A stretch of DNA of 50,273 nucleotides from Candidatus Kapaibacterium sp. (GTDB taxonomy: Bacteria; Bacteroidota; Ignavibacteria; Kapaibacteriales; UBA2268). Below are positions 161 to 38,680 of the stretch, in pieces (positions within the stretch are counted from its first letter, which is position 1; every line of letters begins with the position of its first letter). The DNA lies in assembly GCA_031550405.1 (NCBI GenBank), contig JAVBOP010000154.1, positions 1 through 50,273 of the forward strand, given 5' to 3'. A program made the translations under genes and the position numbers. The notes beneath the pieces are model-generated. The model searched no databases. It was not told the origin of the DNA and saw only the letters and a list, made by a program, of their open reading frames with translations.

Positions 161-180
161 TTATGAATATTTTTTAATAA
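161..180. repeat. 20-bp palindromic motif copy (TTATGAATATTTTTTAATAA)
   Basis: Matches TTATGAA-N6-TT(C/A)ATAA and is identical to the copy at 8066-8085. Intergenic, 76 nt upstream of the partial lipoprotein start. Confidence 0.8.
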
Positions 181-185
181 TCTAT

Positions 186-270
186 ATCGTTATTGGCTGT
201 AATTGAAAGTTGTTTTGCAGCAGAACAGTGAAAGGTATTTGGTGTGTTCACTATTCTGCCGCTATTGCTC
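186..270 (+). repeat. Copy A of a structured element of about 85 nt (inverted partner at 3206-3288)
   Basis: Core 198-267 aligns by eye at roughly 85-90 percent with the reverse complement of 3206-3276. Internal hairpin: arm 217-232 (GCAGCAGAACAGTGAA) pairs with arm 247-262 (TTCACTATTCTGCCGC). Confidence 0.7.
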
Positions 271-405
271 TTCGATTTCCTGTATCTCCATTTCCATTGT
301 TTTTTCTTGTAGTAGTAATTGTCTAAATTTCAATATAACATTTTTTTATCATTTGCAGGTAGTGATTTCTTTTAAAACTTATTTTTGGCAAAACAGCTTA
401 TATAT

Positions 406-433
406 AAAAAAAATTCCATCTTAAAAGATGGAA
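406..433 (-). terminator. Rho-independent terminator downstream of secG
   Basis: On the minus strand: stem TTCCATCTT / AAGATGGAA followed by a run of T (A-run 406-413 on the plus strand). Confidence 0.7.
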
Positions 434-458
434 TTATCTGTATATATATAGTTAAAAT

Positions 459-812
459 TTAGTTTGCAGGCTGTTGTTCTTGCGATGGAGCAGGAGCAGG
501 CTGCACCGGAGCGGGCATAGGTTTCTGCTCAGGAATGGCAATGCCTTCTGTAACAGGTTTTACGATTTCCATCGCCGTTTGCCCAACAAAAAATTTATTT
601 GTAACAATAACAAGCAACATCATCGCAATTGCCAATCCAATTGTAGTTTTAGTTAATAAATCCATTGCTTTCCGCGTGCCAAACATTGATGTTATTGAGC
701 CGCCAATAGTGCCCATTCCTGTCATCATATCGCCTTTGCCCGGCTGAATCAGCACAACAAGTATTATCAATATTGCGATAATAATTAATAAAACCATCAA
801 AAAAGTATACAT
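459..812 (-). CDS. secG: Preprotein translocase subunit SecG
   Basis: 117 aa with two TM segments. Has the LIQPGKGDMMTGMG...FGTRKAMDLLTKTT pattern typical of SecG, plus a Pro/Ala/Gln-rich tail. Confidence 0.85.
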   Translation of the reverse strand: MYTFLMVLLIIIAILIILVVLIQPGKGDMMTGMGTIGGSITSMFGTRKAMDLLTKTTIGLAIAMMLLVIVTNKFFVGQTAMEIVKPVTEGIAIPEQKPMPAPVQPAPAPSQEQQPAN

Positions 813-866
813 TTTTCTTCTCTTCCCTATTGTAATTTACGTTATTTGCTTTAAAAGTACAGGCTA

Positions 867-874
867 CAAAAATA
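867..874 (-). promoter_or_regulatory. TATTTTTG candidate -7 box upstream of secG
   Basis: Reverse complement of CAAAAATA, 55 nt upstream of the secG ATG. Confidence 0.3.
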
Positions 875-983
875 AGATAATTAATGCTTATAAACAAAAT
901 ATTTTTTTGCGGGATCGAATTTGCCATCCAATTTACTTGGATAATTTTGCCAATAAATCCTACGAATGCTTGATATAGCATAA

Positions 984-991
984 TATATTTG
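984..991 (+). promoter_or_regulatory. TATATTTG candidate -7 box upstream of rubrerythrin
   Basis: Matches TAnnTTTG about 70 nt upstream of ATG 1062. An AAGGAG RBS lies at about 1048. Confidence 0.3.
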
Positions 992-1061
992 CTTTTTATC
1001 CGTTTATATAGCTTGTAGAAAATTAGTAAATAAAGTATTTTTACACAAGGAGAAAAAATAT

Positions 1062-1637: not shown

Positions 1638-1648
1638 ACTCTGCTGTT

Positions 1649-1668
1649 TTATGAATATTTTTTCATAA
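1649..1668. repeat. 20-bp palindromic motif copy (TTATGAATATTTTTTCATAA)
   Basis: Perfect 7-6-7 palindrome 12 nt after the rbr stop. Identical to the copy at 25347-25366. Confidence 0.85.
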
Positions 1669-1688
1669 ATATATTCTTAATTTGTATT

Positions 1689-1715
1689 GGGACGAGTTTT
1701 GCTCGTCCTTTTTTT
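1689..1715 (+). terminator. Rho-independent terminator of rbr
   Basis: GGACGAG-TTTTG-CTCGTCC followed by TTTTTTT. Confidence 0.85.
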
Positions 1716-1807
1716 GTTAAATAAGGAATTTATTGATTTATCTGGCAGCAATAAATAAAATGTTGATAAATATCGAGTATAAATTTGTTGGTTATAGGAT
1801 AAAAATG

Positions 1808-1815
1808 TATTTTTG
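1808..1815 (+). promoter_or_regulatory. TATTTTTG candidate -7 box upstream of the decarboxylase beta-subunit gene
   Basis: 43 nt upstream of ATG 1858. Confidence 0.35.
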
Positions 1816-1857
1816 TAACATATATATATGTCATAATATAAAAATGGGAACTTTATA

Positions 1858-3120: not shown

Positions 3121-3205
3121 AATTGATTGATGATAAAGCATTACTATCTTCAGGTTTTCTGTTGTTATAGCTATAGCAAAGACGAGATTAGTATAGAATT
3201 CTGAC

Positions 3206-3288
3206 CAATAGCGACAGAATAGTGAACATACATAAATACCTTTCACTGTTCTGCTGCAAAAAACTTCTCAATTACAATCAACAATGAT
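3206..3288 (-). repeat. Copy B of the structured element of about 85 nt (inverted partner of 186-270)
   Basis: Its reverse complement aligns with copy A. The hairpin arms are 3211-3226 and 3242-3257. Like copy A it lies immediately next to a palindrome copy (3299-3318). Confidence 0.7.
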
Positions 3289-3298
3289 CTAATTTTTA

Positions 3299-3318
3299 TT
3301 ATGAAAATATTTTCATAA
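3299..3318. repeat. 20-bp palindromic motif copy (TTATGAAAATATTTTCATAA)
   Basis: Perfect half-sites. Ends 2 nt before the stop codon (3321-3323) of the minus-strand alkylation-repair gene. Confidence 0.85.
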
Positions 3319-3320
3319 TT

Positions 3321-4040
3321 CTATTTTTTCATGGCTTCTGCTTTCATTTCTGGCGGCATTTTTTCGATTGCATAGCGAAGTGCGGTTCGAGGCATAGTCG
3401 CTTTGTGCTTGATAACAAAATCAAATACCTCTTTTTGATGAGCTTGACTTGCCGCTTTGAGTAGCCAGCCATAACCTTTCTGAACCAAATCGTCTTTGTC
3501 TTCCAGCAAAATAGCAGCTATCTCGAAAATATCATCTAAAAACAAGCCCTTGCGAGCAGGAATAATGAGCGAAACAGCTGCAGCACGGCGAACCCAGCGG
3601 TTATTTGACGTTGCCCATTTCTTTAATTGCGATATATAATTCGGGTACATTCCAATAAATTCGCCGACAGTATGATTGCACAAAATATCGCACGAAGCCC
3701 AATTATTCACATGATTTTGCACCCAGCGCTCGAATATCTCAAAGTCGTCTGGCTCATATTGTTTGTGTATATAATACGACCAGTTACAGGCGATAAACGA
3801 TTCTTCCAAATATCCCGAACGCCAAAGCTCCTCGCATAAATTAAAAATTTCTTCTTTAGATTCGCCTTTTATTTCATCGAAATATGTTTTGCTGATTTTA
3901 TTGACAGCAGGCACTTTCACGCCGTATGATTTGATTTTTTCCTTAAAGAAATGCTGCGATGTGCTTTGCGTTTTTTCGTCAATGCTGTTTTCCAGCTTCT
4001 CTTTTATTCGATTAAGTATTGTATTCATTCGTATTATCAT
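3321..4040 (-). CDS. DNA alkylation repair protein (AlkD/AlkC-like HEAT-repeat glycosylase family)
   Basis: 239 aa and all-helical. The pattern (QHFFKEKIKSYGVKVP, NWASCD, NRWVRRAAAVSL, GYGWLLK) resembles the DNA alkylation repair enzyme family. An alternative ATG start lies at 4028. Confidence 0.65.
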   Translation of the reverse strand: MIIRMNTILNRIKEKLENSIDEKTQSTSQHFFKEKIKSYGVKVPAVNKISKTYFDEIKGESKEEIFNLCEELWRSGYLEESFIACNWSYYIHKQYEPDDFEIFERWVQNHVNNWASCDILCNHTVGEFIGMYPNYISQLKKWATSNNRWVRRAAAVSLIIPARKGLFLDDIFEIAAILLEDKDDLVQKGYGWLLKAASQAHQKEVFDFVIKHKATMPRTALRYAIEKMPPEMKAEAMKK

Positions 4041-4048
4041 TATAGTTT

Positions 4049-4068
4049 TTATGAATTTTTTTTAATAT
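4049..4068. repeat. 20-bp palindromic motif copy, degenerate right half (TTATGAATTTTTTTTAATAT)
   Basis: 9 nt upstream of the alkylation-repair gene start. Confidence 0.6.
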
Positions 4069-5043: not shown

Positions 5044-5103
5044 GTGCTGTAATATATTTTATTGTATAAACTTATAAAGATTATATTCTGATTTTCTGTG
5101 TAT

Positions 5104-5123
5104 TTATTAAAAAAAAATCATAA
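5104..5123. repeat. 20-bp palindromic motif copy, variant (TTATTAAAAAAAAATCATAA)
   Basis: Intergenic, about 60 nt upstream of the nadK start. Confidence 0.55.
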
Positions 5124-5223
5124 ATATATGAAGATAAACTTAAATTCAGCTTTCAGTCTTTTGCCATTATATGTTGTTGTTATGCGAGCCGTGTTTTTTT
5201 AAATATTTTTTTATCTATAGCTT

Positions 5224-5996: not shown

Positions 5997-6016
5997 TTAT
6001 GATTTTTTTTTAATAA
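5997..6016. repeat. 20-bp palindromic motif copy, variant (TTATGATTTTTTTTTAATAA)
   Basis: Lies between the HD-protein stop and the GDPD start. Confidence 0.55.
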
Positions 6017-7091: not shown

Positions 7092-8063
7092 ATGATTTCC
7101 ATACTAATTACAGGTGGCGCAGGCTTTATTGGCAGCAATTTCATTAGCTGCATGCAAAAAAAATACCGCAATTGCAAAATTATTAATTTGGATAAACTGA
7201 CTTATGCGGGCAATCTAAATAATTTATCTGGCGTAATTTCTGATAATTATTATTTTATTCAAGGCGATATAGCAGACACTAAACTTGTAAATAATATTCT
7301 TGAAACGCATAATCCTTCAATAATAGTTAATTTCGCTGCCGAATCGCACGTAGACAAATCTATTGCCAATCCTGAAGATTTTATCCAAACGAATATCGTT
7401 GGCACTGCAAACTTACTGTATGTTGCGAAAAATCATTGGGATAAGGTTGGATATAAAAATAAGCTTTTTTTTCAAATATCGACTGACGAGGTTTACGGTT
7501 CGCTTCCAGAAGATCAACCTAATTTAAAATTTAGAGAAGAAACCCCGCTATCGCCGCATAGCCCTTATGCCGCTTCAAAAGCCAGTGCAGACATGCTTGT
7601 CCAGACATATCACGACACTTACGGCTTTCCGACGCTGATTTCCCGTTGCTCAAATAATTTTGGACCCAATCAATATCCTGAAAAACTTATTCCGGTTATC
7701 ATATTGAATGCGATAAAAAACAAGCCGATCCCCATTTATGGCGACGGCAAAAATATACGCGATTGGATATTTGTCGAAGATCATTGTAACGCTATTCTAC
7801 AGCTGATAGATAGCGGGATGCGAGGCACTGTTTTTAATATTGGCGGTAACTGCGAAATAAAAAATATTGACATTGTCCGCTTTATTCTTGACGCATTGGA
7901 CAAGCCGCATTCGCTTATTCAGCATGTCGAAGACAGATTGGGGCACGATCGCCGCTATGCGGTTGACACAACAAAAATCGAAAGTTTATTCAAGTTCCAT
8001 CCTTCTCCATTCGAGCAAAATATGCTTGCAACAATAGACTGGTACAGGAAAACATACGCATAG
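7092..8063 (+). CDS. rfbB: dTDP-glucose 4,6-dehydratase
   Basis: Has TGGAGFIGSNF, the YAASKASADMLV (YxxxK) motif and the HVEDRLGHDRRY tail. Confidence 0.9.
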   Translation: MISILITGGAGFIGSNFISCMQKKYRNCKIINLDKLTYAGNLNNLSGVISDNYYFIQGDIADTKLVNNILETHNPSIIVNFAAESHVDKSIANPEDFIQTNIVGTANLLYVAKNHWDKVGYKNKLFFQISTDEVYGSLPEDQPNLKFREETPLSPHSPYAASKASADMLVQTYHDTYGFPTLISRCSNNFGPNQYPEKLIPVIILNAIKNKPIPIYGDGKNIRDWIFVEDHCNAILQLIDSGMRGTVFNIGGNCEIKNIDIVRFILDALDKPHSLIQHVEDRLGHDRRYAVDTTKIESLFKFHPSPFEQNMLATIDWYRKTYA

Positions 8064-8065
8064 AT

Positions 8066-8085
8066 TTATGAATATTTTTTAATAA
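8066..8085. repeat. 20-bp palindromic motif copy (TTATGAATATTTTTTAATAA)
   Basis: Starts 3 nt after the last base of the rfbB stop codon. Identical to the copy at 161-180. Confidence 0.8.
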
Positions 8086-8637: not shown

Positions 8638-9322
8638 ATTGATTTTCGATTTTATTTTTCCAAATGTATGTTTTTCTTGCAGAAATAAAATTATAAACGC
8701 TGAGAAAAATATTGCGCTAAGCTATTGTTGCGACGGATGCTTAAGCTCATTTCCTCTGGCTCCGCCGCCTGATAAAATAATAAATCAGCTCATCACTTTT
8801 TTTGAAAACGACGAAATTGCCATTTCTAATGCAGCTGCTCTTTTTGCAGCAGACAATGAATTTATATTCATAAATCTTGTTTATCAATTGAAATATCATG
8901 GGTTTACAAAAATCGGAAAAGAGTTTGGAATATTGCTCGGCAAACTTTTGAGGGATTATGGACTGAACGATTATGATTTTATACTTCCTGTGCCGATACA
9001 TCCAGCGCGCAGGCGGGAGCGAGGGTATAATCAGGCGGAATCCATAGCGGAGGGCGTAGGTGAAATTTTGGGAATTAAAGTTAAAAATAATTTAATAAAG
9101 CGAACCAAATACACCACAAGTCAAACCAGATTTTCCGCTGTTGAGCGTTCAAATAATATCAAAGATGTTTTCAAAATTAATCCGGAATGCAGTGTTGTAA
9201 ATTCGAGTATCTTGCTGATAGATGATGTACTTACAACTGGCTCAACATTAAACTCCTGTGCAACAGTTCTGCTTGAAAACAAAGCTCGAAAAGTCGATGC
9301 CGCCGCCTTGCTCAAAGCATAA
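8624..9322 (+). CDS. ComF-family phosphoribosyltransferase-like protein
   Basis: N-terminal Cys-rich motif (CFSC...CDGC), RRERGYNQAE, and a PRTase loop LLIDDVLTTGST. Overlaps the upstream gene by 14 nt. Confidence 0.8.
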   Translation: MKIPKLIFDFIFPNVCFSCRNKIINAEKNIALSYCCDGCLSSFPLAPPPDKIINQLITFFENDEIAISNAAALFAADNEFIFINLVYQLKYHGFTKIGKEFGILLGKLLRDYGLNDYDFILPVPIHPARRRERGYNQAESIAEGVGEILGIKVKNNLIKRTKYTTSQTRFSAVERSNNIKDVFKINPECSVVNSSILLIDDVLTTGSTLNSCATVLLENKARKVDAAALLKA

Positions 9323-10646: not shown

Positions 10647-11387
10647 TTATTGTTTTATGAACTGAAATGATGAGGCTTTTTCGCCTGCTTTGACTAAATA
10701 GCCGAAATAATAACCTGAAATTAAATCAGCTGTGTTTACTGAAATATTGTTCGAAGTATTTATATTTTGCGATAAAACTAATTTGCCTGATAAATCATAA
10801 ATTTCGACAGCTTCACAATTTTCAATTTCTGAATAAATATTCATAAAACTGATAGAAGGATTCGGAGAAACTCTGGCATTCGGCAGATCAGATAGCTTGA
10901 TAGAACCATTATTAAAATCCCAAGTTGCTGTAAACCGTACAAAATCAGTCTCGTCAATCTCATTATCAACCAGCTTATAAATTGATACCAACAGAGTGTC
11001 CTTGCCTTCTATCATGCTGCTTACCATTGAAATGTAAGACGTACCGTAAGTAGTGGAAGCACCCGGCGCAAGCTCATAATCCAAAACGAGTTCACTGTTC
11101 GTACTGTTCATATTTGCACACGAACCTATGCAACAGCTTGCAATATGCCCATTAGTCATATATTGATTGGATATAACAATCCGAATCGCGGTGCTGGAAA
11201 ACAACTTGTTGGTTATAATAAACTTAGCTTTAAGCTCATCTTCGGCATAAAATATATAATCTCCTGCCTTATGAGCGTCAAGCCCTTCTATTTTCAGGGA
11301 AGTTGATTCTAACATATCTTCTTCTGCGCGGACAAAATTAAAAGCTGTTAAAGATAATGCTATTATGAGAATAAGTATTTTTTTCAT
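10647..11387 (-). CDS. Secreted protein of unknown function with a T9SS C-terminal sorting domain
   Basis: Has a signal peptide. The C-terminus, SPNPS...VEIYDLSGKLV...LISGYYFGYLV....FIKQ, fits the type A Por-secretion tail. Confidence 0.6.
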   Translation of the reverse strand: MKKILILIIALSLTAFNFVRAEEDMLESTSLKIEGLDAHKAGDYIFYAEDELKAKFIITNKLFSSTAIRIVISNQYMTNGHIASCCIGSCANMNSTNSELVLDYELAPGASTTYGTSYISMVSSMIEGKDTLLVSIYKLVDNEIDETDFVRFTATWDFNNGSIKLSDLPNARVSPNPSISFMNIYSEIENCEAVEIYDLSGKLVLSQNINTSNNISVNTADLISGYYFGYLVKAGEKASSFQFIKQ

Positions 11388-11439
11388 AAAAAACTCCTTC
11401 GTATGAATTAATTATTGTGTTTATTACACGTAAATTTAT

Positions 11440-11995: not shown

Positions 11996-12014
11996 GGAAA
12001 TAAAGTGATAGCAA

Positions 12015-12047
12015 AGCGGTTTCCCTATGCAGGAAATCGCTTTTTTT
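12015..12047 (+). terminator. Rho-independent terminator
   Basis: AGCGGTTTCC-loop-GGAAATCGCT followed by T7. Confidence 0.75.
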
Positions 12048-12144: not shown

Positions 12145-12152
12145 TAAATTTG
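12145..12152 (+). promoter_or_regulatory. TAAATTTG candidate -7 box only 5 nt before the mfd ATG (possible leaderless mRNA)
   Basis: Exact TAnnTTTG. There is no SD-like sequence between the box and ATG 12158. Confidence 0.3.
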
Positions 12153-12157
12153 CATAT

Positions 12158-15100
12158 ATGAATCATGCACACCTGCTTAAGACTTTTGAAAATCTCCCGT
12201 TCGTTAATAGAAGTGTAGAATTATTAAAAAAAAATCATAATTGCAATGTAAAAATGCTGTATGGAGCTGCCAAGTCATTATATATCTCAGCAATAGCACA
12301 AAGGACACAATATAAGTTTCTGGTTCTTGCTCCGAACAGTGAAAATGCAGCTAACCTGTTTGATGACATGCAGTTGCTTATGCCGCAGCATAACACGTGG
12401 TACTTTGAACCCGGCAAAAAGCAAAGCAGCGTTAAAATTAGCAACGACCCGCATATAGCCGAGCTTATCGACCGCGTGGCAAAATTTCAGAATGAAGCAA
12501 GCGCTGTGGCGGTTTGCACGCCTGAAATCCTGCAAATGCAAATCCCCAATCCCGATATTGTTCATCAGCATGCCTGTACGCTTGGCAAGAGTCAAGTTGT
12601 TGATATTCAAGAACTTGCAACGCAATTGTCATTGAATGGATTTCAGAAGGAACAGTATGTCTCGCGTCAGGGCGAATATGCCGTTCGCGGCGGAATTGTG
12701 GACATTTTTGCTCCCAGTATGCAGCTGCCTGTACGCATTGAATTTTGGGACGACAGCATTGATTCTATCCGCTTTTTCGACAGTTTAACCCAGCGCAGCC
12801 TTGAGGAGCTTGATAGCATTGATTTTATAAATTCGATGTTCGTGAGCGAGGAAATTGCATCTTCGACGGTGTTTAACTATATCACGCAGGATACGGTTTT
12901 TATTATTGATGAGCCGCAATCTATCGACTTTTCGCAGGAATCTCTTCGACCTGTTTCAAACTTTAAGTGCATCAATATCAACTCGTTAGGCAATGCTGAC
13001 ATTGAGCTTTCATGCACGCCGCAGCCAAGCATGCACGCCTCTGTGCAGAGATTTGCAATGGAACTTGATAAGAATATAAAGCTGAATATTGGCACATATA
13101 TAGCGGCGGATGGCGAGATACATCTTAATAGATTAAAGGATTTAGTCGAAAACACATTGGATGTTGATGATGGAATTATGAATAAAAATTCATCAATGTT
13201 CGATATGGAGCAATTCGATTTGAAGGAGATTAGGTTCGATATAAATGAGGTGCATTGGCTTGCAAGCTCGCTCAGCACTGGCTTTGTGCTGCCGGAGTAT
13301 CAGTTGGCATATTTTGTTGAGAATGAAATATTTGCCCGCCATAGAAATATTAAATCTGACAAGTCAAAAACAGCTAAGGGCATTACATTAAAAGAGCTTA
13401 AGCAGCTGCATACAGGCGACTACATAGTGCATGAAGACAAGGGTATCGGCAAATTCGACGGCTTCCAATCCATTGAAATTGCCGGCAGCAAACAGGATTG
13501 CCTGCGCATGGTATTTGCCGACGACGATGTGCTCTATGTCCATTTAAATTACATACATAAGGTGCAAAAATTCTCTGCAGCCGATGGCACTGTGCCGCGC
13601 CTGTCGAAGCTCGGTTCTACCGAATGGCTGCGCAAAAAAGACAGAACCAAGCGCAAGCTCAAGGATATTGCACGCGAACTTATTGCCTTATATGCCCAGC
13701 GGCAAATGCAGAAAGGGTTTGCCTTTCCGCCTGACGGCTCGTGGCAGAAAGAGTTTGAGGCGGCGTTCATATATGAGGATACTATTGACCAAGCCAAGAC
13801 CACGCAGGAGGTTAAGCGGGATATGGAGGCTGATATGCACATGGACAGGCTGGTTTGCGGCGATGTCGGCTTTGGCAAGACGGAGATTGCAATCCGTGCC
13901 GCATTCAAGGCTGCCACCGCTGGCAAGCAGACCGCTGTGCTTGTGCCAACAACTATCCTTGCCCAGCAGCATTATTTCTCATTTTCGGAGCGTATCGGGC
14001 GCTATCCAGTCAAGGTTGATGTTTTGTCCCGCTTTCGCAGCCGTAACGATCAAAAGCAAATATTAGAAAAATTAAAAGAAGGCAAGATAGACATACTTAT
14101 CGGCACGCACAGAATATTAAGTAAGGATATTGATTTTAAAGACTTAGGGCTGTTAGTTGTTGATGAAGAGCATAGATTCGGCGTCGGTGCAAAAGAAAAG
14201 CTGCGGCAGATAAAAAACAATGTTGATACGCTGACACTGACTGCAACGCCGATACCCCGCACGCTGAATTTTTCGCTTATGGGCGCCCGGGACTTGAGTC
14301 AGATTGAGACGCCGCCACGCAACCGGCTGCCTGTTATCACAGAAATAAATGAATGGCAGGACAGCTTCGTATGCGAGAGGATATTGGAGGAAATTCGGCG
14401 CGGAGGACAGGTTTTCCTCGTAAACGATAAGATTCATGGATTGGATAAAATCGCCCGGGACTTGCAAATGGAGATGCCAGCCATACGCTTTGCAGAGGTT
14501 CACGGGCAAATGCCTGCGAATTTTATCGAAGATATAATGGACAAGTTTATTAACAGGAAATTCGACGTCCTGCTTGCAACGAAGATAATCGAGTCCGGCA
14601 TTGACATCCCGAATGCAAATACCATCATTATCAATAATGCGCAGAATTTCGGGCTTGCCGAGCTGTATCAGTTGCGTGGACGCGTTGGGCGCAGCAATAT
14701 TCAGGCATATTGTTACCTGCTTGTACCCAATGCCTCGCATCTGCCTGCAAAGGCATTGAAGCGCTTGCTTGCAATTGAGGAATTTACGGATTTGGGCAGC
14801 GGTTTGCAGCTTGCCATGCGCGATATGGAGATACGCGGTGCCGGTGCGCTGCTGGGCGCTGAACAGAGCGGATTTATATCCGAAATTGGTTTTGATTTAT
14901 ATCAAAAAGTGCTGGCAGAAGCAGTTATGGAGCTGAAGAAGAACGAGTTTGCCGATATTTTCCGCAAGAATGATGACGAGCCGGATCTGCCCGATTTTAA
15001 TAATGACGATATTATGATAGAGACGGACACCGATGCGTATTTTCCACCAAACTATGTTGAAGATGATACAGAGCGGTTCAGCTATTATAAGGCATTATTT

Positions 15101-19213: not shown

Positions 19214-19233
19214 TTATGAATTTTTATTCATAA
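19214..19233. repeat. 20-bp palindromic motif copy (TTATGAATTTTTATTCATAA)
   Basis: Perfect palindrome including the spacer ends. Identical to the copy at 23747-23766. Lies 12-42 nt upstream of the large-gene start. Confidence 0.85.
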
Positions 19234-21494: not shown

Positions 21495-21502
21495 CAAAAA
21501 TA
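21495..21502 (-). promoter_or_regulatory. TATTTTTG candidate -7 box 4 nt before the yggS ATG (possible leaderless mRNA)
   Basis: Reverse complement of CAAAAATA at 21495-21502. Confidence 0.3.
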
Positions 21503-22157: not shown

Positions 22158-23607
<1,450 letters not shown>

Positions 23608-23618: not shown

Positions 23619-23746
23619 AATATATATTACGAAATTATTTTGATAATAATACAGGAATCGCTCTCAAAAACATTTTTATCTTCAAAAGAAATAGCAACAG
23701 ATGTATTTTAAGGATGGTAAGGAAATTATAAGGATATATCCATGTT

Positions 23747-23766
23747 TTATGAATTTTTATTCATAA
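23747..23766. repeat. 20-bp palindromic motif copy (TTATGAATTTTTATTCATAA)
   Basis: Lies in the divergent atpD / M24-peptidase spacer. Identical to the copy at 19214-19233. Confidence 0.85.
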
Positions 23767-25044: not shown

Positions 25045-25346
25045 TTTTATTAGGTATTGTTCACACTAATTAAACAATCAAAAATTAACGAAAATGCAAT
25101 GAACATTGTGCCAGTTTTATCGTATTGGGTGAAAATCTTCTAAATCTTTTGGTTCGCCTGAATAATCTTTCAATTTCATTGCATTTTTCTATATTTTTTT
25201 GTCGCAATTTTTCGGCTGGATTTCGAAGGTATGACAGGCTCTAAGCCTTTAAAGCGCCAGTTCCTCTGCGGCGGTATCTGCAAGGCTGTTTGCGGGCACG
25301 GTTGCATCAGCAGCAATATCATTCGGCTCAATATTTTCATCATCAT

Positions 25347-25366
25347 TTATGAATATTTTTTCATAA
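25347..25366. repeat. 20-bp palindromic motif copy (TTATGAATATTTTTTCATAA)
   Basis: Lies in the middle of a 530-bp spacer between convergent genes. Identical to the copy at 1649-1668. Confidence 0.85.
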
Positions 25367-25575
25367 ATATTCTGTTGTGCGGATTATTTATGGATAAATG
25401 TTTCGAAAAAAGCGGGATACAGCCGAGCTAAACCTTGAGTGTTATTGCAGTAGAATTAATGGCAAAAAAACAAGCAGATAATGGTAAAAAAGGCAAGAAT
25501 TTAGGCTTTTTTTGATATTCAATATTAGATGTAAGCGCCTTAAATAACAATGTATTAGAGCGTGCAGATATTTAT

Positions 25576-26955: not shown

Positions 26956-26975
26956 TTATTAATTTCTTTTCATAA
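26956..26975. repeat. 20-bp palindromic motif copy, variant (TTATTAATTTCTTTTCATAA)
   Basis: Lies in the divergent rsmI / mrdA spacer. Confidence 0.6.
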
Positions 26976-27038: not shown

Positions 27039-28913
27039 ATGCTATTTAGTCAGCCATTGTGGAAATCGTCCGATTTCGCCGACCCTAACCGGAAACGCAT
27101 ATTTAGAGCTATAATACTGCTGGTTTTGCTCATTTTTGCCGTTCGGCTTGCGCAGCTGCAAATCATAGAATATGGACAATATTACAGCAAGAGCGAGACG
27201 CAGGCTATCAAAAAGGTGCGGATTACGCCTGTGCGCGGCAACATGTACGACAGGAACGGCGTGCTTATGGTGCATAATGTGCCGTCGTTTTCCATCACCA
27301 TCACGCCATACGAGTTCAAGGACGAGGTGATGCCGCTGCTGTGCAGTATTATCCAGATGGATTCGAACGATATACGCCGCACATTGAACAGATACAGGAA
27401 TTACTCGAAATTTGTGCCTATAAAAATTATGCGCGATGCTGATATTGCAACCGTAGCACAGCTGGAAGAATACTCCGAATATCTTATAGGAGTGGATGTA
27501 TCTATCGATTCCAAACGTACTTACAACTTTGATGGCAATATGGCGCATCTGTTCGGATATGCCCGTGAGATAACGCGCGAGCAACTCGAAAAACATAAGT
27601 ACTATAGACCGGGCGATATGATAGGGCAAAACGGCTTGGAGCAATCCTATGAAAACATACTGCGCGGGCGGGATGGAGTGGAGTTCGTTGCTGTAAACAA
27701 GGTGGGACGCCGCATTTCTGCCTTTGCAAATGGCGAGAAGGATATACTGGCAAGCAATGGATTCGACCTCAATCTTGCCATTGATTCGAAGCTGCAGGAG
27801 CTAAGTGAGAAGCTGCTGGCAGGCAAAAAAGGTGCTGTGGTTGCCATAGATCCGAGTAACGGTGAGGTGCTGATATTTGCCAGCAAGCCTGACTATGACC
27901 CGCGCCTTTTCAGCGGAAAGGTGCCGACAGAATTGTACCGCTCTTTGAGTGATAATACCTCATATCCTCTGTTGCCGCGTGCCTTGCAGTCGCAATATCC
28001 GCCAGGGTCTACATGGAAAATGCTCATTGCACTTGCTGCTTTGCAGGAAGGGCTTATTAATGAAAACACCACTATAAATTGTAGCGGCAGCTATACTTTA
28101 GGCACAAGGCAGTATAAATGCCATGTGCATGGTAATGTAAATGTGCGGCAGGCGCTGCGCTATTCATGCAATGTGTTTTTCTATACGCTGGGCATAAAGC
28201 TGGGTATGGAGAAGTTTGAAAAGTATGGACAGATGTTTAATTTTGGCGAATATACCCATATCGACCTGCCCAACGAGAAGAAAGGCAGGCTGCCAACCCG
28301 CGAGTGGCTGCAAAGGAGGGACAAGTCTCTGACGTCATTCAAGGGGCGGCTGGTTAACTATGGCATAGGGCAAGGCGAAATACTGGCAACTCCGCTGCAA
28401 ATGGCGGCATATACCGCTGCTATAGCCAATGGCGGTACATATTATCAGCCGCATATAGTGCGTTCGGTGCATAACCAGCTGGCAAATACGATTGACAATT
28501 TAAGCTATGACGCAAAAAAAATACCCATTAATGCCGGATATTTTGAATTGGTCAAAAACGGTATGTGGGATGTTGTAAATGCTGGCGGCACAGGTGCAGG
28601 CGTTGCCATATCAGGCTTGGACGTGTGCGGCAAAACAGGCACCGCCCAAAATCCGCATGGTTTAGACCACTCGTGGTTTGTCTGTTTTGCACCAAAAAAT
28701 AATCCGAAAATAGCCATGTGCGTATTTGTTGAAAACGCTGGCTTTGGAGCGGCAGTTGCAGGTCCTATAGCTCGGCAGCTGCTTGAGGCATTCTTCTTTC
28801 CGGACAGGCAGCGAGCAGAGGATGCGGCGCCCATACCTGATGCAGTGATAGATTCGCTGGGAATGGAAGTGCTGCCCGAAGAAGTGCCGATAGAAAATCC
28901 TGACAATAATTAA
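27039..28913 (+). CDS. mrdA: Penicillin-binding protein 2 (elongasome transpeptidase)
   Basis: N-terminal TM segment, the PBP dimerisation region, and STWK, SCN and KTGTA motifs. Confidence 0.9.
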   Translation: MLFSQPLWKSSDFADPNRKRIFRAIILLVLLIFAVRLAQLQIIEYGQYYSKSETQAIKKVRITPVRGNMYDRNGVLMVHNVPSFSITITPYEFKDEVMPLLCSIIQMDSNDIRRTLNRYRNYSKFVPIKIMRDADIATVAQLEEYSEYLIGVDVSIDSKRTYNFDGNMAHLFGYAREITREQLEKHKYYRPGDMIGQNGLEQSYENILRGRDGVEFVAVNKVGRRISAFANGEKDILASNGFDLNLAIDSKLQELSEKLLAGKKGAVVAIDPSNGEVLIFASKPDYDPRLFSGKVPTELYRSLSDNTSYPLLPRALQSQYPPGSTWKMLIALAALQEGLINENTTINCSGSYTLGTRQYKCHVHGNVNVRQALRYSCNVFFYTLGIKLGMEKFEKYGQMFNFGEYTHIDLPNEKKGRLPTREWLQRRDKSLTSFKGRLVNYGIGQGEILATPLQMAAYTAAIANGGTYYQPHIVRSVHNQLANTIDNLSYDAKKIPINAGYFELVKNGMWDVVNAGGTGAGVAISGLDVCGKTGTAQNPHGLDHSWFVCFAPKNNPKIAMCVFVENAGFGAAVAGPIARQLLEAFFFPDRQRAEDAAPIPDAVIDSLGMEVLPEEVPIENPDNN

Positions 28914-28926
28914 TTTTTTTTCATAA
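28907..28926. repeat. 20-bp palindromic motif copy, variant (TAATTAATTTTTTTTCATAA)
   Basis: Overlaps the mrdA stop codon and lies 17 nt before the next start. Confidence 0.6.
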
Positions 28927-29951: not shown

Positions 29952-31022
29952 ATGAAATTTTATTTTGTGATGGCAGCGCTGCTTTTGGGTGTTGCTGCGT
30001 GTGATAATTGTAATCCAATTGACTGCTGCAATGGCAACGGAACTAATGACAGTACTTTGTACTTTACGGGCATTGCATTAAATAATTTTGCACCGGCAAT
30101 ATTTAGCATTGAGGAGACTGGCACAAATTTTATGAAAATTGCGGATAATTCGCAAATGTTTTCGCCGCCATCTTTTGATGAAAATATTGCAGTATTGGAA
30201 ATACCTGATACGAGCCAATACAGGAGCATTTTATTAAAAAATATTCATAATTCTGATGTGATAGAAATTGCGAAATCGGACAAGCAAACATTTGGTTCGC
30301 CTGTGATTTCAAGCACGGGAACAAGAGTTGCATATTGCTCCGCAAATGAATTATACATGTGGGTTTATGATAAATTGACTGGCTCAACTTATTTGGAACT
30401 GTTAAGCACAAGTTACTTAAATTCCATTAGCTTGCCGGCATTTTCCGATAATGGAAAATATTTGGCTTTTGCTGAAATTGTTTCAAATGACCTGATTAAA
30501 ATGAAAATAATTGATGCAAATCATTCGGAAAATATTGTTTGGTCTAAAAATTTTGAATATAAATCTGAAAAAAATTATCAAATTAAATGGATACAAAATA
30601 AAAATGTAATATATTTTATTCAAAACGACACAACTATGTTCAAGTATAGTATTGAGTCAGGAGAAAGCAACATAAGTTTTGGCAATAGCGACAATTTGGG
30701 AGTAATATCAGCAAACATATCTTCGGATGAAAAATATATTGCTTTTACGAATTTGAAAAATGAATTTTGGATAAAGTCGGTTGTTGATAATAATTTTTAT
30801 CGTTTAACAGATGATTCGGGTAATAAGGTTTTTTCTCCGATGTGGAATAACAGGAACGATAAGCTAACTTTTTTTGAATCTAATGCTTACAGCGATGGAA
30901 CGCAATTGGATTTATTTATAATTGATGTTAATTTTGAAGATAATATTCCGAAAATTTCTAATAAAACGCTTATTTTTAATAATGTTTTAAATAGTATCTG
31001 GGGACGCTCAGCTAACCAATGA
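29952..31022 (+). CDS. Lipoprotein with TolB-like (PD40) beta-propeller repeats
   Basis: Has a lipobox (LLGVAACDN) and recurring S(P/D)xGxxxA(F/Y) blades (SSTGTRVAY, SDNGKYLAF, SSDEKYIAF). Its stop overlaps the sigma-factor ATG (ATGA). Confidence 0.5.
   Translation: MKFYFVMAALLLGVAACDNCNPIDCCNGNGTNDSTLYFTGIALNNFAPAIFSIEETGTNFMKIADNSQMFSPPSFDENIAVLEIPDTSQYRSILLKNIHNSDVIEIAKSDKQTFGSPVISSTGTRVAYCSANELYMWVYDKLTGSTYLELLSTSYLNSISLPAFSDNGKYLAFAEIVSNDLIKMKIIDANHSENIVWSKNFEYKSEKNYQIKWIQNKNVIYFIQNDTTMFKYSIESGESNISFGNSDNLGVISANISSDEKYIAFTNLKNEFWIKSVVDNNFYRLTDDSGNKVFSPMWNNRNDKLTFFESNAYSDGTQLDLFIIDVNFEDNIPKISNKTLIFNNVLNSIWGRSANQ
30231..30250. repeat. Palindromic motif match inside a CDS (TTATTAAAAAATATTCATAA)
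   Basis: Lies inside the PD40 lipoprotein gene, encoding ..ILLKNIHN.. Confidence 0.4.
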
Positions 31023-31616: not shown

Positions 31617-32924
31617 ATGGAAAATATTGTAGAAATCGTTAATAGATATTTTGATGGCAGTTTGCAGCAGCATGAAGAAAAATGGCTGTTTGATGAGCTG
31701 GCAATATCTCAATATACCCGGAATGTATTTAATCAATATCTGCGCCTGCATCTTAGTGCGTCAAAAGATACCACAAGTTTGATGCCGCCGATTGAAGCAA
31801 CTGAAAATGTGTTCAGATCATTGGGTTTTTCCATTCCATCCAATATGTCTGATGACTCTAAAAAACTGTTTCCAAAAACGCTGTCTGGCTTTGCTATATC
31901 GCTGTTAGTACTGTTTTTCACATGCTTCATTAGCGCTGCAACACTTGGTATTTATAAATTAGTAACGGGTGATAACGTTGCAGCAGGCGATTCGATTGCA
32001 AAATTTTCGCAAAATATAATTGACGAAAATGTACTGTTTAGCACCGCTGCCATCAAAAAAGATAAAAATAATTTGGAAATAACTGAAGGAATTATTAAAA
32101 ATAATTCAGAATATAGCTCGCAGCGTGTAAATACTGGCTCAGCAAAAGCAGAAAATCCAAATAGCGCAGGCAAGGTCAGGCAGAATATACAATCACTTGC
32201 TTATCATCAGGCTTTACCTGAAATGTATGCTTCTAATATGTTGTCAAATTCTGAAGATGATTATGAAAAAAAATTAATAAATCTTTCGAATAATAACCAG
32301 TTGAAAAAAAACAGTGTTAATGATATAACTGCTAAAAATATAGACAAAAGCACTAATGATATTTCTGCACTTTCGAATTCATTAATTCCAAACAACAACA
32401 TATTCTCGAATAATAATTTGCTTATTAACGACATAAACACGACAAAATTTATATTACTTTTAAATAAATCTTTTTTTGCAAAAATGCCGACATATAATAT
32501 AGATGAAAATAATGCGTTTTGGAATAATATAGATTTTAGTATTTCGTACAAATTGAGCAATAGACACACTATTGGCGTAGAATTTGGCTGGGAAGACTAT
32601 GCGCAAGAGTTTGATAGAACTATAAATGGCGAGGCATTCACACAGCAGCAAATTCCAACCTTATTTTATGGAAGCGCCATTTATTCATATAACTTAGCTC
32701 CAATATTATCGCTTGAAGCTGTCGAGCCGTTTGCAAAATTCTCTGTCGGAGGCACTTCTATTGGACCTGTGATAGGTTCGTCATTGGGAGCATATATCAA
32801 ATTATATGGAAATTTCGGCTTGTCAATATCAGAAAATTTTAATTTATTATTCTACAATGTAGAAAACAACCTGTATAATTCTAATAAGTTAGAAACTCGC
32901 TTCGGCATATTTTACGGATTTTAA
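31617..32924 (+). CDS. Putative anti-sigma factor with one TM segment, an Asn-rich linker and a C-terminal beta-barrel-like domain
   Basis: Lies immediately downstream of the ECF sigma gene. The N-terminus, VNRYFDGSLQQHEEKWLFDEL, resembles anti-sigma N-domains but lacks Zn ligands. TM segment: FAISLLVLFFTCFISAATLGIY. The C-terminal part of about 140 aa has alternating hydrophobic strands and ends in ..RFGIFYGF. Confidence 0.4.
   Translation: MENIVEIVNRYFDGSLQQHEEKWLFDELAISQYTRNVFNQYLRLHLSASKDTTSLMPPIEATENVFRSLGFSIPSNMSDDSKKLFPKTLSGFAISLLVLFFTCFISAATLGIYKLVTGDNVAAGDSIAKFSQNIIDENVLFSTAAIKKDKNNLEITEGIIKNNSEYSSQRVNTGSAKAENPNSAGKVRQNIQSLAYHQALPEMYASNMLSNSEDDYEKKLINLSNNNQLKKNSVNDITAKNIDKSTNDISALSNSLIPNNNIFSNNNLLINDINTTKFILLLNKSFFAKMPTYNIDENNAFWNNIDFSISYKLSNRHTIGVEFGWEDYAQEFDRTINGEAFTQQQIPTLFYGSAIYSYNLAPILSLEAVEPFAKFSVGGTSIGPVIGSSLGAYIKLYGNFGLSISENFNLLFYNVENNLYNSNKLETRFGIFYGF
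32261..32280. repeat. Palindromic motif match inside a CDS (TTATGAAAAAAAATTAATAA)
   Basis: Lies inside the anti-sigma-like gene, encoding ..DYEKKLIN.. Confidence 0.4.
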
Positions 32925-34011: not shown

Positions 34012-34031
34012 TTATGAATTTTTTTTAATTA
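34012..34031. repeat. 20-bp palindromic motif copy, variant (TTATGAATTTTTTTTAATTA)
   Basis: 15 nt after the cheR stop and just before the terminator hairpin. Confidence 0.65.
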
Positions 34032-36294: not shown

Positions 36295-36308
36295 GTACTT
36301 ACAATATT

Positions 36309-36316
36309 CAAACGTA
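36309..36316 (-). promoter_or_regulatory. TACGTTTG candidate -7 box upstream of the HEAT-repeat gene
   Basis: 15 nt upstream of ATG 36294. Confidence 0.3.
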
Positions 36317-36456
36317 GTTTATATGCTATAATATCCTGTTGGAATTGTTCGCATAACAATTATAGCATTGCAATATACCTATTTTTTTTGACTTGATATT
36401 CTTAAAACTGTCACCCATTACAAAAAATAGTATGCGTAGAATGATACTCTGTTTAT

Positions 36457-36476
36457 TTATGAAAAAAAAATCATAA
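36457..36476. repeat. 20-bp palindromic motif copy (TTATGAAAAAAAAATCATAA)
   Basis: Lies in the divergent spacer between the HEAT gene and the antiporter gene. Confidence 0.75.
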
Positions 36477-36532
36477 ATGGTAGTGAATGTTTTAAAATTT
36501 TACAATATAGTTTTTACATTGCGATTAATGCG

Positions 36533-36540
36533 TATTTTTG
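36533..36540 (+). promoter_or_regulatory. TATTTTTG candidate -7 box upstream of the antiporter gene
   Basis: 35 nt upstream of ATG 36575. Confidence 0.35.
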
Positions 36541-36574
36541 TTACTGCAAATAAGTTATAGATTAAAAGAACAGA

Positions 36575-38644
36575 ATGATAGATTTCTCACATATTACATT
36601 GCCTTTTACTCTGCCGGTAATTATTGTAACTATATTATTTTTAATATTCTTAGTAATACCAATACTGTTTAAAAAAATACATGTGCCATCAATAATCGGC
36701 TTGATTATCAGCGGCACTGTTTTCGGACAATACGGTTTAAACTTAATTCCAGACGATGCGAGCATCAAGCTACTGGGAGAAATCGGCATCGTGTTTATCA
36801 TGTTTCTTGCGGGAATTGAGCTTGATTTCAACCAAATAAAAGAGAATAAGCAAAAAAGTGTTGTTTTTGGTTTTTTGACTTTTGCATTTCCTTTGACAAT
36901 TGGATTAATAATTTATCATTTTGCTCTGGGTTATAGCTTTCTGCCAGCTGTGCTAATTGCTCTCATGTTTTCAACGCAGACACTCGTATCTTATCCAATT
37001 GTAAGCCGGTTAGGCTTAGCCAACAATCGCAGCAGCGTAACAGCAGTCGGTGGTACGATAATCACAGATACATTGGTTTTGCTGGCGGTCGGTATTTTAA
37101 TAACGGCGGTAAAAAGCGAAATGACGGCAGAATATTTTATCTATTTGGCGATTGCCGTTGCATTGTTTATCTTTTTGGTGGCAGCTGTATTTCCGTTTAT
37201 AGCTAAAATTTTTTTTAAATACATGGAGGATGATAATTATGCTTACTTTACTCTGATAATTGCATTGCTTTTTCTTGCTGGAACGCTCGCACACTTCGTC
37301 AGCCTTGAGCCAATAATTGGAGCGTTTTTATCCGGCATTGCACTTAACCGCTATATTCCAAAAAATTCTGCGCTGATGTCGAATTTGCAGTTTGCAGGCA
37401 ATGCCATATTTATACCTTGCTTTTTGTTTTATGTCGGAACATTAATAGATTACAGTGTTGTTTTTAATGGATACAAGACCATAGAAGTTACTGTAATATT
37501 GACGGTTACAGCTTTGGTTGCAAAATTTATTCCTGCTGTTATTACTGGCAAAATATTCAATTTCACTAAAAATGAAATAATTTTATTATTCGGTCTGTCG
37601 AGTTCGCACGCTGCTGCGGTTATTGCAATACTTATTGTCGGATACGATATTGGAATTGTTGATAACAGCACCTTAAATGCCACTGTATTGCTGGTTTTAT
37701 TGACTTGCATTGTCAGTTCTCTTGTAACGGAAAGAACAGGAAAGAAAATTGTTCTCACGGCAAATATGAAAATTGGCGAACAGGACGACGGTACAGAGCA
37801 TATTGTTGTACCGTATGCAAATCCTAATAATATCAATAAATTACTGGATTTGGCAGTCGCTGGAATTGAAGACAGGCAAAGCATAATTTTTCCACTGACA
37901 ATAGTTATGGAAAATGATAAACAATATCAAAAAACAATAAATATTAATAAAAAAATCATTCAGGACATAACAAATAAATTATATTCAAAAGAAATTATTA
38001 TTACTCCAATTTCGCGGATCGATACAAATCCAATTCCCGGCATCTTACGAACAATTAAGGAACTTACAGCAACAACACTTGTAATTGGATGGACAGGACG
38101 CCAAACGAAATTTGAAACGCTTGGCAGCAATATTGATATGATTCTCGAAACAACGGACTTGCAGACAATTGTGTGCCACATAAATGAATCTTTAAGTATT
38201 TTTACGAATCTGACAGTTGTTGTGCCAGAACACGTTGAGCATGAAAAAGGATTTAAAAAATGGTTTGCTTTTATCGCTACCGTTTCCAAAAATATTGGCT
38301 GCAATGTTACATTTATTTCCAAGAAGACTACCGGCGAAATGCTGCAAAATCATTGTCAAAATTGGAAATTAAATCAATCGGCAAATTTCATTATTATGGA
38401 GACATTTCCAGAGGTTATGGATTTTTTGGCAATTCCGAAAAAAAATACTTTAATGATGTTTATTTTTGCACGAGATAAAAGTATTTCGTTTGACACGTCA
38501 ATGAAAGATTTTATAAAATATGTCAGCCGGATTGATGTGCGCCGCCAGAATCACAGCGATTATAATTTTGCGATTCTCATTCCCGAGCAATATTCTACAG
38601 GAATCGAGCATGATTCAATTCAAGGCGAAATCTCCAAATTTTAA
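36575..38644 (+). CDS. CPA2-type monovalent cation:proton antiporter with a C-terminal soluble domain of about 290 aa
   Basis: Has the GEIGIVFIMFLAGIELDF motif and about 12 TM segments. The C-terminal region has two alpha/beta-like repeats (VVPYANPNN..., LTVVVPEHVEHE...), possibly USP-like. Confidence 0.8.
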   Translation: MIDFSHITLPFTLPVIIVTILFLIFLVIPILFKKIHVPSIIGLIISGTVFGQYGLNLIPDDASIKLLGEIGIVFIMFLAGIELDFNQIKENKQKSVVFGFLTFAFPLTIGLIIYHFALGYSFLPAVLIALMFSTQTLVSYPIVSRLGLANNRSSVTAVGGTIITDTLVLLAVGILITAVKSEMTAEYFIYLAIAVALFIFLVAAVFPFIAKIFFKYMEDDNYAYFTLIIALLFLAGTLAHFVSLEPIIGAFLSGIALNRYIPKNSALMSNLQFAGNAIFIPCFLFYVGTLIDYSVVFNGYKTIEVTVILTVTALVAKFIPAVITGKIFNFTKNEIILLFGLSSSHAAAVIAILIVGYDIGIVDNSTLNATVLLVLLTCIVSSLVTERTGKKIVLTANMKIGEQDDGTEHIVVPYANPNNINKLLDLAVAGIEDRQSIIFPLTIVMENDKQYQKTININKKIIQDITNKLYSKEIIITPISRIDTNPIPGILRTIKELTATTLVIGWTGRQTKFETLGSNIDMILETTDLQTIVCHINESLSIFTNLTVVVPEHVEHEKGFKKWFAFIATVSKNIGCNVTFISKKTTGEMLQNHCQNWKLNQSANFIIMETFPEVMDFLAIPKKNTLMMFIFARDKSISFDTSMKDFIKYVSRIDVRRQNHSDYNFAILIPEQYSTGIEHDSIQGEISKF

Positions 38645-38660
38645 AACAAAACAATAATAT

Positions 38661-38680
38661 TTATGAAAAAAAATTCATAA
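38661..38680. repeat. 20-bp palindromic motif copy (TTATGAAAAAAAATTCATAA)
   Basis: Perfect half-sites. 17 nt after the antiporter stop and 39 nt before the ClC start. Confidence 0.85.

Follow-up and report, generated by a model that had tools for sequence, protein, structure and literature searches.

A highly iterated, evenly spaced palindrome in a Candidatus Kapaibacterium contig: a possible architectural site or genome tag

A 50,273-nt stretch of the genome of Candidatus Kapaibacterium sp. (contig JAVBOP010000154.1, positions 1 to 50,273; hereafter the window, meaning this whole stretch) carries many copies of a 20-bp palindrome, TTATGAA-N6-TTCATAA. Its enrichment is real, statistically robust and far above chance, and the motif is found not only between genes but also inside them, where codon choice accommodates it. 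We tentatively favor its interpretation as a highly iterated, lineage-specific site in duplex DNA for an abundant symmetric dimer, with a predicted role as architectural site or genome tag.

The window holds seven exact matches to TTATGAA-N6-TTCATAA and 13 copies once a G/T and C/A variant of the half-site is permitted; the count rises to 18 copies at one mismatch or fewer and to 29 at two or fewer, against an expectation of 1.06 for the latter in dinucleotide shuffles of the whole window. Shuffled A/T-rich spacers, a comparison suggested in an earlier note on this sequence, do not give similar counts. When the 35 spacers (6.4 kb) were each shuffled separately with dinucleotides preserved, 0.38 copies were expected and at most 3 appeared in 1000 shuffles, compared with 18 observed, so the A/T richness of spacers does not explain the motif. 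The 16 intergenic copies that the earlier note had listed are all present at the positions it gave, as are the three pairs of unlinked identical 20-mers (161 and 8066, 1649 and 25347, 19214 and 23747), and its weaker copies were located with 2 mismatches (43266) or 3 mismatches each (47942 and 48073). Its purely intergenic framing was nevertheless incomplete, since 11 intragenic copies and the intergenic copy at 23627 had been overlooked. The palindrome had been said to occupy most spacers, but it is present in 17 of the 35 spacers of at least 13 nt, which is not most of them.

The excess is confined to a single arrangement of the arms. The N6 arm distance accounts for 7 exact copies, 11 copies with 1 mismatch and 11 with 2, whereas the other distances from 0 to 15 yielded no exact copy, at most one copy with 1 mismatch, and 0 to 7 copies with 2. 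Lone half-sites number about 10 per strand, compared to about 8.5 estimated from base composition. Since enrichment is restricted to N6 and half-sites alone are near chance, the unit is the entire dyad. Its density amounts to 0.36-0.58 copies per kb (0.58 per kb at two mismatches or fewer) and differs about 10-fold between intergenic (2.8 copies per kb) and coding (0.25 per kb) DNA. On either strand, two of the three frames of the palindrome contain a stop codon, and the intergenic bias is at least partly a consequence of these codons.

An alignment of the 29 copies, each oriented by its own spacer, defines a full unit of 24 bp, ATTTATGAA-(T6 or A6 run)-TTCATAAAT, outside of which there is no conserved information. 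Consequently, the unit does not form the terminus of some longer repeat, with the exception of one pair of copies described below. At least five of the six spacer bases are the same letter in 24 of the 29 copies (TTTTTT, TATTTT, TTTTTA or their complements), which makes the center of the palindrome an A-tract. Two details of the original description need correction: spacers are not strictly A/T-only, since that of the copy at 26956 (TTTCTT) contains a C, and the stem is not all-A/T, having one G:C pair. The sole G and C of the arms are 11 bp apart, one helical turn, a distance that would place the half-site contacts of a protein in successive major grooves. The single common variant of the half-site, TTATGAA to TTATTAA (the same change viewed from either strand), is carried by 12 of the 29 copies. 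The 13 copies with otherwise intact arms include 6 single variants (G5T or C16A) and no compensated double, and a variant that is never compensated argues for degenerate recognition by a protein rather than for base pairing. In the copies at 22158 and 28907 the variant supplies the TAA stop codons of atpD and mrdA, where it is explained by the coding need for TAA. Overall, the strict dyad, the fixed spacing, the A-tract, the tolerance of one weak half-site and the lack of a pairing constraint fit recognition by a dimer.

The copies within open reading frames (ORFs) provide a second line of evidence. They number 11, of which 7 have one mismatch or none, and they occupy all three reading frames, with mismatches falling mostly where TGA or TAA would otherwise arise. 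Synonymous codons were shuffled within each gene, keeping every protein and the codon usage of every gene. At one mismatch or fewer the 7 observed copies compare with 0.73 in the shuffles, an excess of about 10-fold (the highest count in 300 shuffles was 3), and at two or fewer the comparison is 11 observed versus 2.9. Protein alignments show the two copies in alaS to be substitutions in variable segments and not insertions. The copy at 42137-42156 (2 mismatches; amino acids ~372-378) lies in an ungapped alignment to Aquifex AlaRS, and the exact copy at 41142-41161 (amino acids 704-709, YEQKFI) lies in a variable linker that has no insertion relative to homologues, the protein there being, if anything, shorter. 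The codon-shuffle excess and the alaS alignments together indicate that copies arise by substitution under a force acting at the DNA level.

The copies are also more evenly spread along the window than expected. Start-to-start distances of the 29 copies have a mean of 1557 nt and a coefficient of variation (CV) of 0.54. Random placement that kept the intergenic/coding split gave a CV of 1.11, with none of 5000 trials as even, and a more stringent null, in which no spacer could hold more than one copy, gave 0.87 (p=0.003). When intergenic copies were held fixed and only intragenic copies were randomized, the evenness remained significant (p=0.0014). Intragenic copies stand away from intergenic ones, with a median distance of 1920 nt versus 874 nt for random coding positions, and they fill intervals whose spacers are without the motif (8.1-19.2 kb, 28.9-34.0 kb and 38.7-43.3 kb). 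This even spacing points to a function at the scale of the chromosome rather than of the gene.

In the scheme that we favor, the candidate reader would be an abundant homodimeric DNA-binding protein. Its two subunits would each take one TTATGAA half-site, and their contacts, in successive major grooves, would span a narrow, intrinsically bent A-tract center. The sites would serve the whole chromosome, as nucleoid-architectural elements or generic tags placed about every 1.5 kb, and would not switch particular genes. A DNA-level force, either selection or drive, would create and keep copies via point substitutions wherever these are tolerated, which would be freely in spacers and, within genes, in variable protein segments through synonymous or conservative codon choice. 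The argument for binding draws on the dyad geometry, the A-tract center, the density and the spacing. An architectural or tagging role, in turn, accounts better than gene-specific control for how dense and evenly spaced the copies are, for their indifference to gene arrangement and for their imprint on coding sequence. Among the roles proposed in the earlier note, a site for a dimeric DNA-binding or nucleoid protein thus fits best, an RNA 3'-end or processing hairpin is disfavored, and a REP-like element fails, as detailed below.

Several observations weigh against this proposal. The material comprises only 50 kb of a single genome, and the motif is absent from all relatives examined (AtpD at 82-88% or pyrophosphate (PPi)-dependent phosphoenolpyruvate carboxykinase (PEPCK) at 65-69% identity). 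The 40 window ORFs scanned offer no obvious candidate for the binding protein, only an extracytoplasmic function (ECF) sigma factor, and the sites of known nucleoid proteins are much more degenerate than this 14-18 bp consensus. The analysis of even spacing is post hoc and involves 29 sites, and no copy is present in the final 6.5 kb or in the PEPCK gene, which is 3.5 kb long. Finally, of the 17 oriented intergenic copies, 14 have their T-run on the + strand regardless of gene direction, a bias that a purely symmetric reader would not predict; it is weak (estimated p ~0.05, given a background T-run share of 0.6 in spacers) and may be a replication-strand effect.

Protein content, promoter boxes and AtpD matches place the host of the motif within Bacteroidota and the Fibrobacteres-Chlorobi-Bacteroidetes (FCB) group, as an Ignavibacteria-like bacterium. 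Window proteins include a type IX secretion system (T9SS) sorting domain, DUF4292 and a BT_3928-family member, and the window has Bacteroidota-type TAnnTTTG boxes. The closest named matches of AtpD (22171-23592) are from Ignavibacteria metagenome-assembled genomes (MAGs), at 86-87% identity, and those of the PPi-dependent PEPCK (PF26300; 15720-19202) are from Bacteroidales MAGs, at 64%, a mixed signal that points either to gene transfer or to a lineage that is deep and poorly sampled. Window proteins were otherwise found in one run only, SRR23967709, and a search of genome contigs with Mfd gave matches only in distant Bacilli. No other iterated palindrome was found in the relatives reached via AtpD (loci L004-L009, L194 and L195) or via PPi-PEPCK (L130-L132), all of which are too distant for a test of site conservation at orthologous spacers. 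Because the nearest relatives examined are without it, the motif appears to be lineage-specific. No paper describing it was found in a literature search, and no phage was enriched for it in a viral scan, where the recurrent matches came from a few phage families and were redundant coding sequences. One phage contig, IMGVR_UViG_2909367301_000001 (L143, L186), carries an iterated palindrome of its own around TGAAAAATTTTTCA, with at least 8 copies and differing outer bases; this palindrome is unrelated to the motif family of the window.

Density and evenness also bring to mind the uptake signal sequences and DNA uptake sequences (USS/DUS) of naturally competent bacteria. The window motif could be an analogue of these, with a competence receptor preferring the motif and recombination spreading it by molecular drive until most fragments of 1-2 kb were tagged, an explanation that we consider unlikely. 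It is nevertheless the foremost alternative to the architectural reading and would lead to similar spacing and similar behavior within genes, although an uptake signal in the form of a dyad is not known from elsewhere. The resemblance is nonetheless considerable: USS/DUS are short, lineage-specific motifs with ~0.4-1 copy per kb in coding and non-coding DNA alike, even spacing and an AT-tract (as in the flanks of the Haemophilus USS), and their copies in genes originate by substitution, in tolerated frames and variable segments. The window motif matches this profile in its 0.36-0.58 copies per kb across both kinds of DNA, its evenness (CV 0.54 against null values of 0.87-1.11, p<=0.003), the gap filling by gene-internal copies and their substitutional origin in tolerated frames and variable segments, its apparent restriction to one lineage, and its AT-tract. 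The window also contains a ComF-family gene, a weak point given how widespread ComF is. The known USS/DUS, however, are asymmetric 9-12-mers used in one orientation and are known only from Pasteurellaceae and Neisseriaceae, whereas the window motif is a strict 20-24 bp dyad in another phylum; its ~10-fold intergenic excess also exceeds that of USS, although the stop codons of the motif may account for the excess.

Two other iterated motifs merit comparison. The HIP1 motif of cyanobacteria, GCGATCGC, is hyper-abundant, codon-maintained in genes, spread by substitution and lineage-restricted, and it has no agreed function. Within 50 kb the window motif likewise shows a hyper-abundant palindromic word that enters genes via codon choice and spreads by substitution, but HIP1 is an 8-bp, GC-rich, contiguous word linked to methyltransferase sites, while the window motif is bipartite and AT-rich (7-6-7, or 9-6-9) with an A-tract. 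Closer in taxonomy, the 18-nt palindrome aAACCGTTgaAACGGTTt of Caldithrix abyssi, a member of the FCB group and a relative of Bacteroidota, has 38 exact copies in about 5 Mb; its authors judged a transcription-factor site unlikely and left the function unexplained (PMC5317091). It is likewise short, lineage-specific, mostly intergenic and found in convergent spacers, and its center is asymmetric with a strand preference (PMC5317091), which the + strand T-run bias of the window recalls. The Caldithrix palindrome differs in containing GC and in avoiding genes, whereas the window motif is ~18 times denser (7 exact copies in 50 kb) and is also found in genes.

The geometry of the dyad is that of helix-turn-helix dimers in general, and the motif could instead be read by a global transcription factor akin to CRP, Lrp or ArgR, serving as its operator in a very large regulon with sites at many promoters. 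Most intergenic copies are indeed 0-100 nt upstream of a start codon, and two overlap promoter regions, one 8 nt upstream of the atpD TAnnTTTG box (23627) and one in the 5' region of alaS (43266). The TGAA-N6-TTCA core has the G-to-C distance of ARG boxes and CRP sites. Against this stand good copies in convergent spacers (3299 and 25347) and between a stop codon and a terminator (1649). Nor would control of promoters lead one to expect intragenic copies that fill gaps and are enriched by way of codon choice. TAnnTTTG boxes are concentrated in spacers (23 of 82 in the 13% non-coding share of the window), but their position relative to the palindrome varies, being 8, 21 or 56 nt downstream, or upstream. 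With no such fixed distance, and with a sigma-70 scan at chance level, a role as promoter element was rejected. The earlier note had argued that the density was beyond that of a specific regulon, and our figures bear this out, with ~1 site per 1.7 kb and half of all spacers occupied. All spacer types carry copies (2 of 6 convergent, 3 of 7 divergent and 12 of 21 tandem), and the neighbors are functionally unrelated, including rbr, oadB, nadK, rfbB, PEPCK, atpDC, mrdA, cheR, ion transporters and alaS. A specific regulon is therefore unlikely, and its operator was rejected as a candidate given occupancy of 17 of 35 spacers including convergent ones, presence in genes and unrelated housekeeping neighbors. 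A global regulator remains quite improbable for the same density and the same mixture of neighbors. Note that two TAnnTTTG boxes (the Bacteroidota-type -7 element), at 12145-12152 and 21495-21502, end 4-5 nt before the annotated starts of mfd and yggS, which suggests leaderless mRNAs or misplaced start codons.

Operators with similar arms do exist elsewhere. The ARG box, with consensus wnTGAATwwwwATTCAnw, shares with the window motif a dyad for a helix-turn-helix dimer (ArgR/AhrC, as in CRP-type sites), a TGAA...TTCA core, an AT-rich center and a distance of 11 bp from G to C. It differs in occurring at arginine genes as tandem pairs of 18-bp boxes 2-3 bp apart, whereas copies in the window are single and ~100-fold too dense (for general features of ARG boxes see PMC5839063). 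An ARG box was rejected for the window motif, which has no second box at +/-21 bp and no arg genes nearby. The dif/Xer core site was likewise rejected, since the difH site of H. pylori, TGAAAA-N6-TTTTCA, has another arm-to-center geometry and is single-copy. A pattern scan of metagenomes returned at least 120 single matches and, among the matches listed, no multi-copy locus like the window. One sequence, TTATGAATATATATTCATAA, accounted for 34 of the 120 matches listed (loci L010-L129, e.g., L017:3070, L019:6499, L065:471 and L078:1459), and 25 of these 34 were within 400 nt upstream of genes for DUF134 (PF02001) or DUF5320 (PF17253). It has R at -1 in 60 of 64 cases, is often preceded by TTTAAATA and is present in one or two copies per locus. 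On this genomic context, TTATGAATATATATTCATAA appears to be an uncharacterized conserved operator of DUF134/DUF5320 operons, apparently in archaeal or anaerobe contigs; an identification of these TATATA palindromes as ARG boxes was rejected because they neighbor DUF134/DUF5320 genes and not arg genes. The operator has the same 7-bp arms and 6-bp spacing as the window motif, which is so by construction of the search pattern, but its center is fixed as TATATA with R at -1, while the window motif has T- or A-run centers, T at -1 and about 30 copies. That the same arms serve as a conserved operator elsewhere is a further point for a global regulator, and it shows that proteins reading the TTATGAA-N6-TTCATAA geometry exist, though the reader in the window is not thereby identified. 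A tblastn search found no DUF134 or DUF5320 gene in the window.

High copy number, mostly outside genes, also invites comparison with repetitive extragenic palindromes and bacterial interspersed mosaic elements (REP/BIME). REP/BIME of Enterobacteria and Pseudomonas are high-copy palindromes located mostly between genes, often just past stop codons, and the architectural proteins IHF and gyrase bind some of them. If the window motif were REP-like or a miniature mobile palindrome, it could have been spread by a REP-associated tyrosine transposase (RAYT), by an IS200-type transposase or by another copy-and-paste mechanism. Consistent with this, several unlinked copies are identical 20-mers, and 12-15 nt of extra flank is shared between 5089-5125 and 36442-36478 (89%) and between 149-180 and 8054-8085 (88%). 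Copies 161 and 3299, moreover, each head a ~115-nt repeat. REPs, however, are GC-rich, stable hairpins of 30-40 nt, strictly extragenic and mobilized by RAYT, whereas the window motif shows neither kept pairing nor an insertion signature. The G:C pair is broken in 12 of 29 copies, compensatory changes are absent among the 13 intact-arm copies, and overall no conserved flank or terminal tetranucleotide extends past 24 bp. Both alaS copies, which were the intragenic copies tested, proved to be substitutions and not insertions, and no Y1 transposase was found among the 40 window ORFs scanned. REP/BIME membership was accordingly rejected on two grounds, the 11 intragenic copies, which are at odds with strictly extragenic placement, and the lack of a conserved hairpin (6 single variants and 0 compensated doubles among 13). 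A mobile origin thus seems very unlikely.

The ~115-nt element occurs twice, at 161-275 on the + strand and 3203-3318 on the - strand, as an inverted pair that brackets rbr-oadB, each member being headed by the palindrome. The two are 81% identical overall and about 90% in a core that contains a 12-bp hairpin (CAGAACAGTGAA / TTCACTATTCTG) and has no Rfam match. The element could be a small RNA (sRNA) gene or a repeat resembling miniature inverted-repeat transposable elements (MITEs).

A function at the RNA level would take the form of a weak-hairpin terminator, an RNase processing site or 3'-end stabilizer, or a device for translational coupling, the ATG-N9-TCA-TAA frame of the palindrome making a 5-codon mini-ORF on both strands. 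Perfect copies do fold as RNA (-4.8 to -6 kcal/mol, z about -5), many copies are 0-16 nt from stop or start codons, and copies with a T-run look like a U-tract. The closeness to stop codons noted earlier was recovered for rbr, the DNA-alkylation-repair gene, rfbB, atpD, mrdA, cheR and the Na/H antiporter. The three half-site-variant copies that were folded, in contrast, gave 0 kcal/mol, and the variant seen is C to A rather than the pairing-neutral C to T that would keep a G:U pair. Since uncompensated variants are present in 12 of 29 copies and the three folded gave 0, readings as an RNA or DNA hairpin, a terminator or a REP are disfavored. Orientation relative to transcription is mixed, with a sense-strand A-run in 9 tandem spacers and a T-run in 4, and copies are found in divergent spacers, upstream of both genes. 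Intragenic copies, furthermore, are enriched and not avoided. Canonical GC-rich terminators are separate from the palindrome, as had been claimed (e.g., 1689-1709 and 12013-12043), the first of them directly after copy 1649. An intrinsic terminator was rejected on these grounds of weak or zero folding, mixed orientation, divergent and intragenic copies and separate terminators, and scans of the window for Rfam families and tRNAs gave no match. We regard any RNA-level role as the least probable of the explanations weighed here. A link to start codons was also rejected, since only one of three apparent motif-ATG junctions (8066) is a credible gene start; the ATG at 161 opens a 9-codon ORF and that at 25347 an unsupported 56-codon ORF.

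The intergenic copies occur in varied settings. At the beginning of the window, the copy at 161-180 (1 mismatch, TTATGAATATTTTTTAATAA) is ~75 nt upstream of a minus-strand lipoprotein gene and heads the repeat at 161-275. The exact copy at 1649-1668 is 11 nt past the rbr stop and ahead of the canonical terminator at 1689-1709, and the exact copy at 3299-3318, which heads the inverted second repeat, is in a convergent spacer, where 2 nt separate it from the stop codon of the gene for DNA-alkylation repair. Three copies with 2 mismatches follow, at 4049-4068 (8 nt upstream of the start of the minus-strand gene 3321-4040), at 5104-5123 (60 nt upstream of nadK, on the minus strand) and at 5997-6016 (within a 43-nt tandem spacer). 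The copy at 8066-8085 (1 mismatch) occupies the 22-nt spacer from the rfbB stop to the next ATG, and the exact copy at 19214-19233 is 11 nt upstream of the minus-strand PPi-PEPCK start.

In the ATP synthase region, the copy at 22158-22177 (1 mismatch) is located between atpD and atpC, where its variant half-site TTATTAA gives the atpD stop, and the copy at 23627-23646 (2 mismatches) precedes the atpD box. It is followed by two exact copies, at 23747-23766 (divergent spacer, 30 nt upstream of a peptidase gene) and at 25347-25366. The latter falls in a 531-nt gap between convergent genes (25045-25575) with a GC-rich middle, in which no convincing ORF (the longest being 56-66 amino acids), tRNA or Rfam match was found. 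The copy at 26956-26975 (1 mismatch, spacer TTTCTT) precedes the TAnnTTTG box of mrdA by 21 nt in a divergent spacer, and that at 28907-28926 (2 mismatches) overlaps the mrdA stop codon. Further along are copies 14 nt past the cheR stop (34012-34031, 2 mismatches), in a divergent spacer (36457-36476, 1 mismatch) and, as an exact match, 16 nt past the Na/H antiporter stop and 38 nt before a ClC channel gene (38661-38680). Downstream of another TAnnTTTG box, the copy at 43266-43285 (2 mismatches) overlaps the start codon of alaS. The membership of two weak copies with 3 mismatches each, at 47942-47961 and at 48073-48092 (overlapping the mlaE start codon), is uncertain.

Besides those in alaS, intragenic copies are found in the comF-family gene (8854-8873, 2 mismatches, open frame NEFIFI) and in a gene for a T9SS-tail protein (10827-10846, 1 mismatch, which abolishes TAA). 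Three are in mfd, at 12221-12240 (2 mismatches, a G to T change abolishing TGA), 13176-13195 (1 mismatch, TAA to TCA) and 15115-15134 (1 mismatch). The second of these is identical as a 20-mer to the copy in a TonB-dependent receptor gene at 43765-43784 (1 mismatch). The remaining three are at 30231-30250 (1 mismatch, a G to T change abolishing TGA), 32092-32111 (2 mismatches) and 32261-32280 (1 mismatch, open frame YEKKLI). A related arrangement is present in the 29-nt divergent spacer at 11383-11413, which has everted half-sites, TTCATAA-N12-TATGAAT, with a minus-strand ATG inside the first.

Hyper-abundant short genome motifs are rare, with USS/DUS, HIP1, REP, Chi and KOPS, the FtsK-orienting polar sequences, among the known ones, and each has revealed a process at the scale of the chromosome, whether uptake, repair, segregation or control of supercoiling. 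To our knowledge, none has been established for Bacteroidota or Ignavibacteria. The window motif belongs with the highly iterated, lineage-specific genome motifs as kin of USS/DUS, HIP1, REP and the Caldithrix palindrome, while being distinct from each. It unites a strict protein-type dyad, near-regular spacing and a measurable imprint on codon choice, in a poorly known uncultured lineage. In practical terms, it is a marker for binning contigs of this lineage, and it may affect gene calling because several copies are on or beside start and stop codons. A bolder and somewhat unlikely proposal is that the chromosome carries a self tag needed about every 1.5 kb, which would be either the first dyad uptake signal outside Proteobacteria or the strict site of a new nucleoid organizer, and which would shape synonymous and amino-acid choice in housekeeping genes such as mfd and alaS where no spacer is available. 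If a protein reader were found, it would be a nucleoid protein with an unusually sharp site, and hence an orthogonal DNA-binding module, or part of a new system of uptake or self-recognition.

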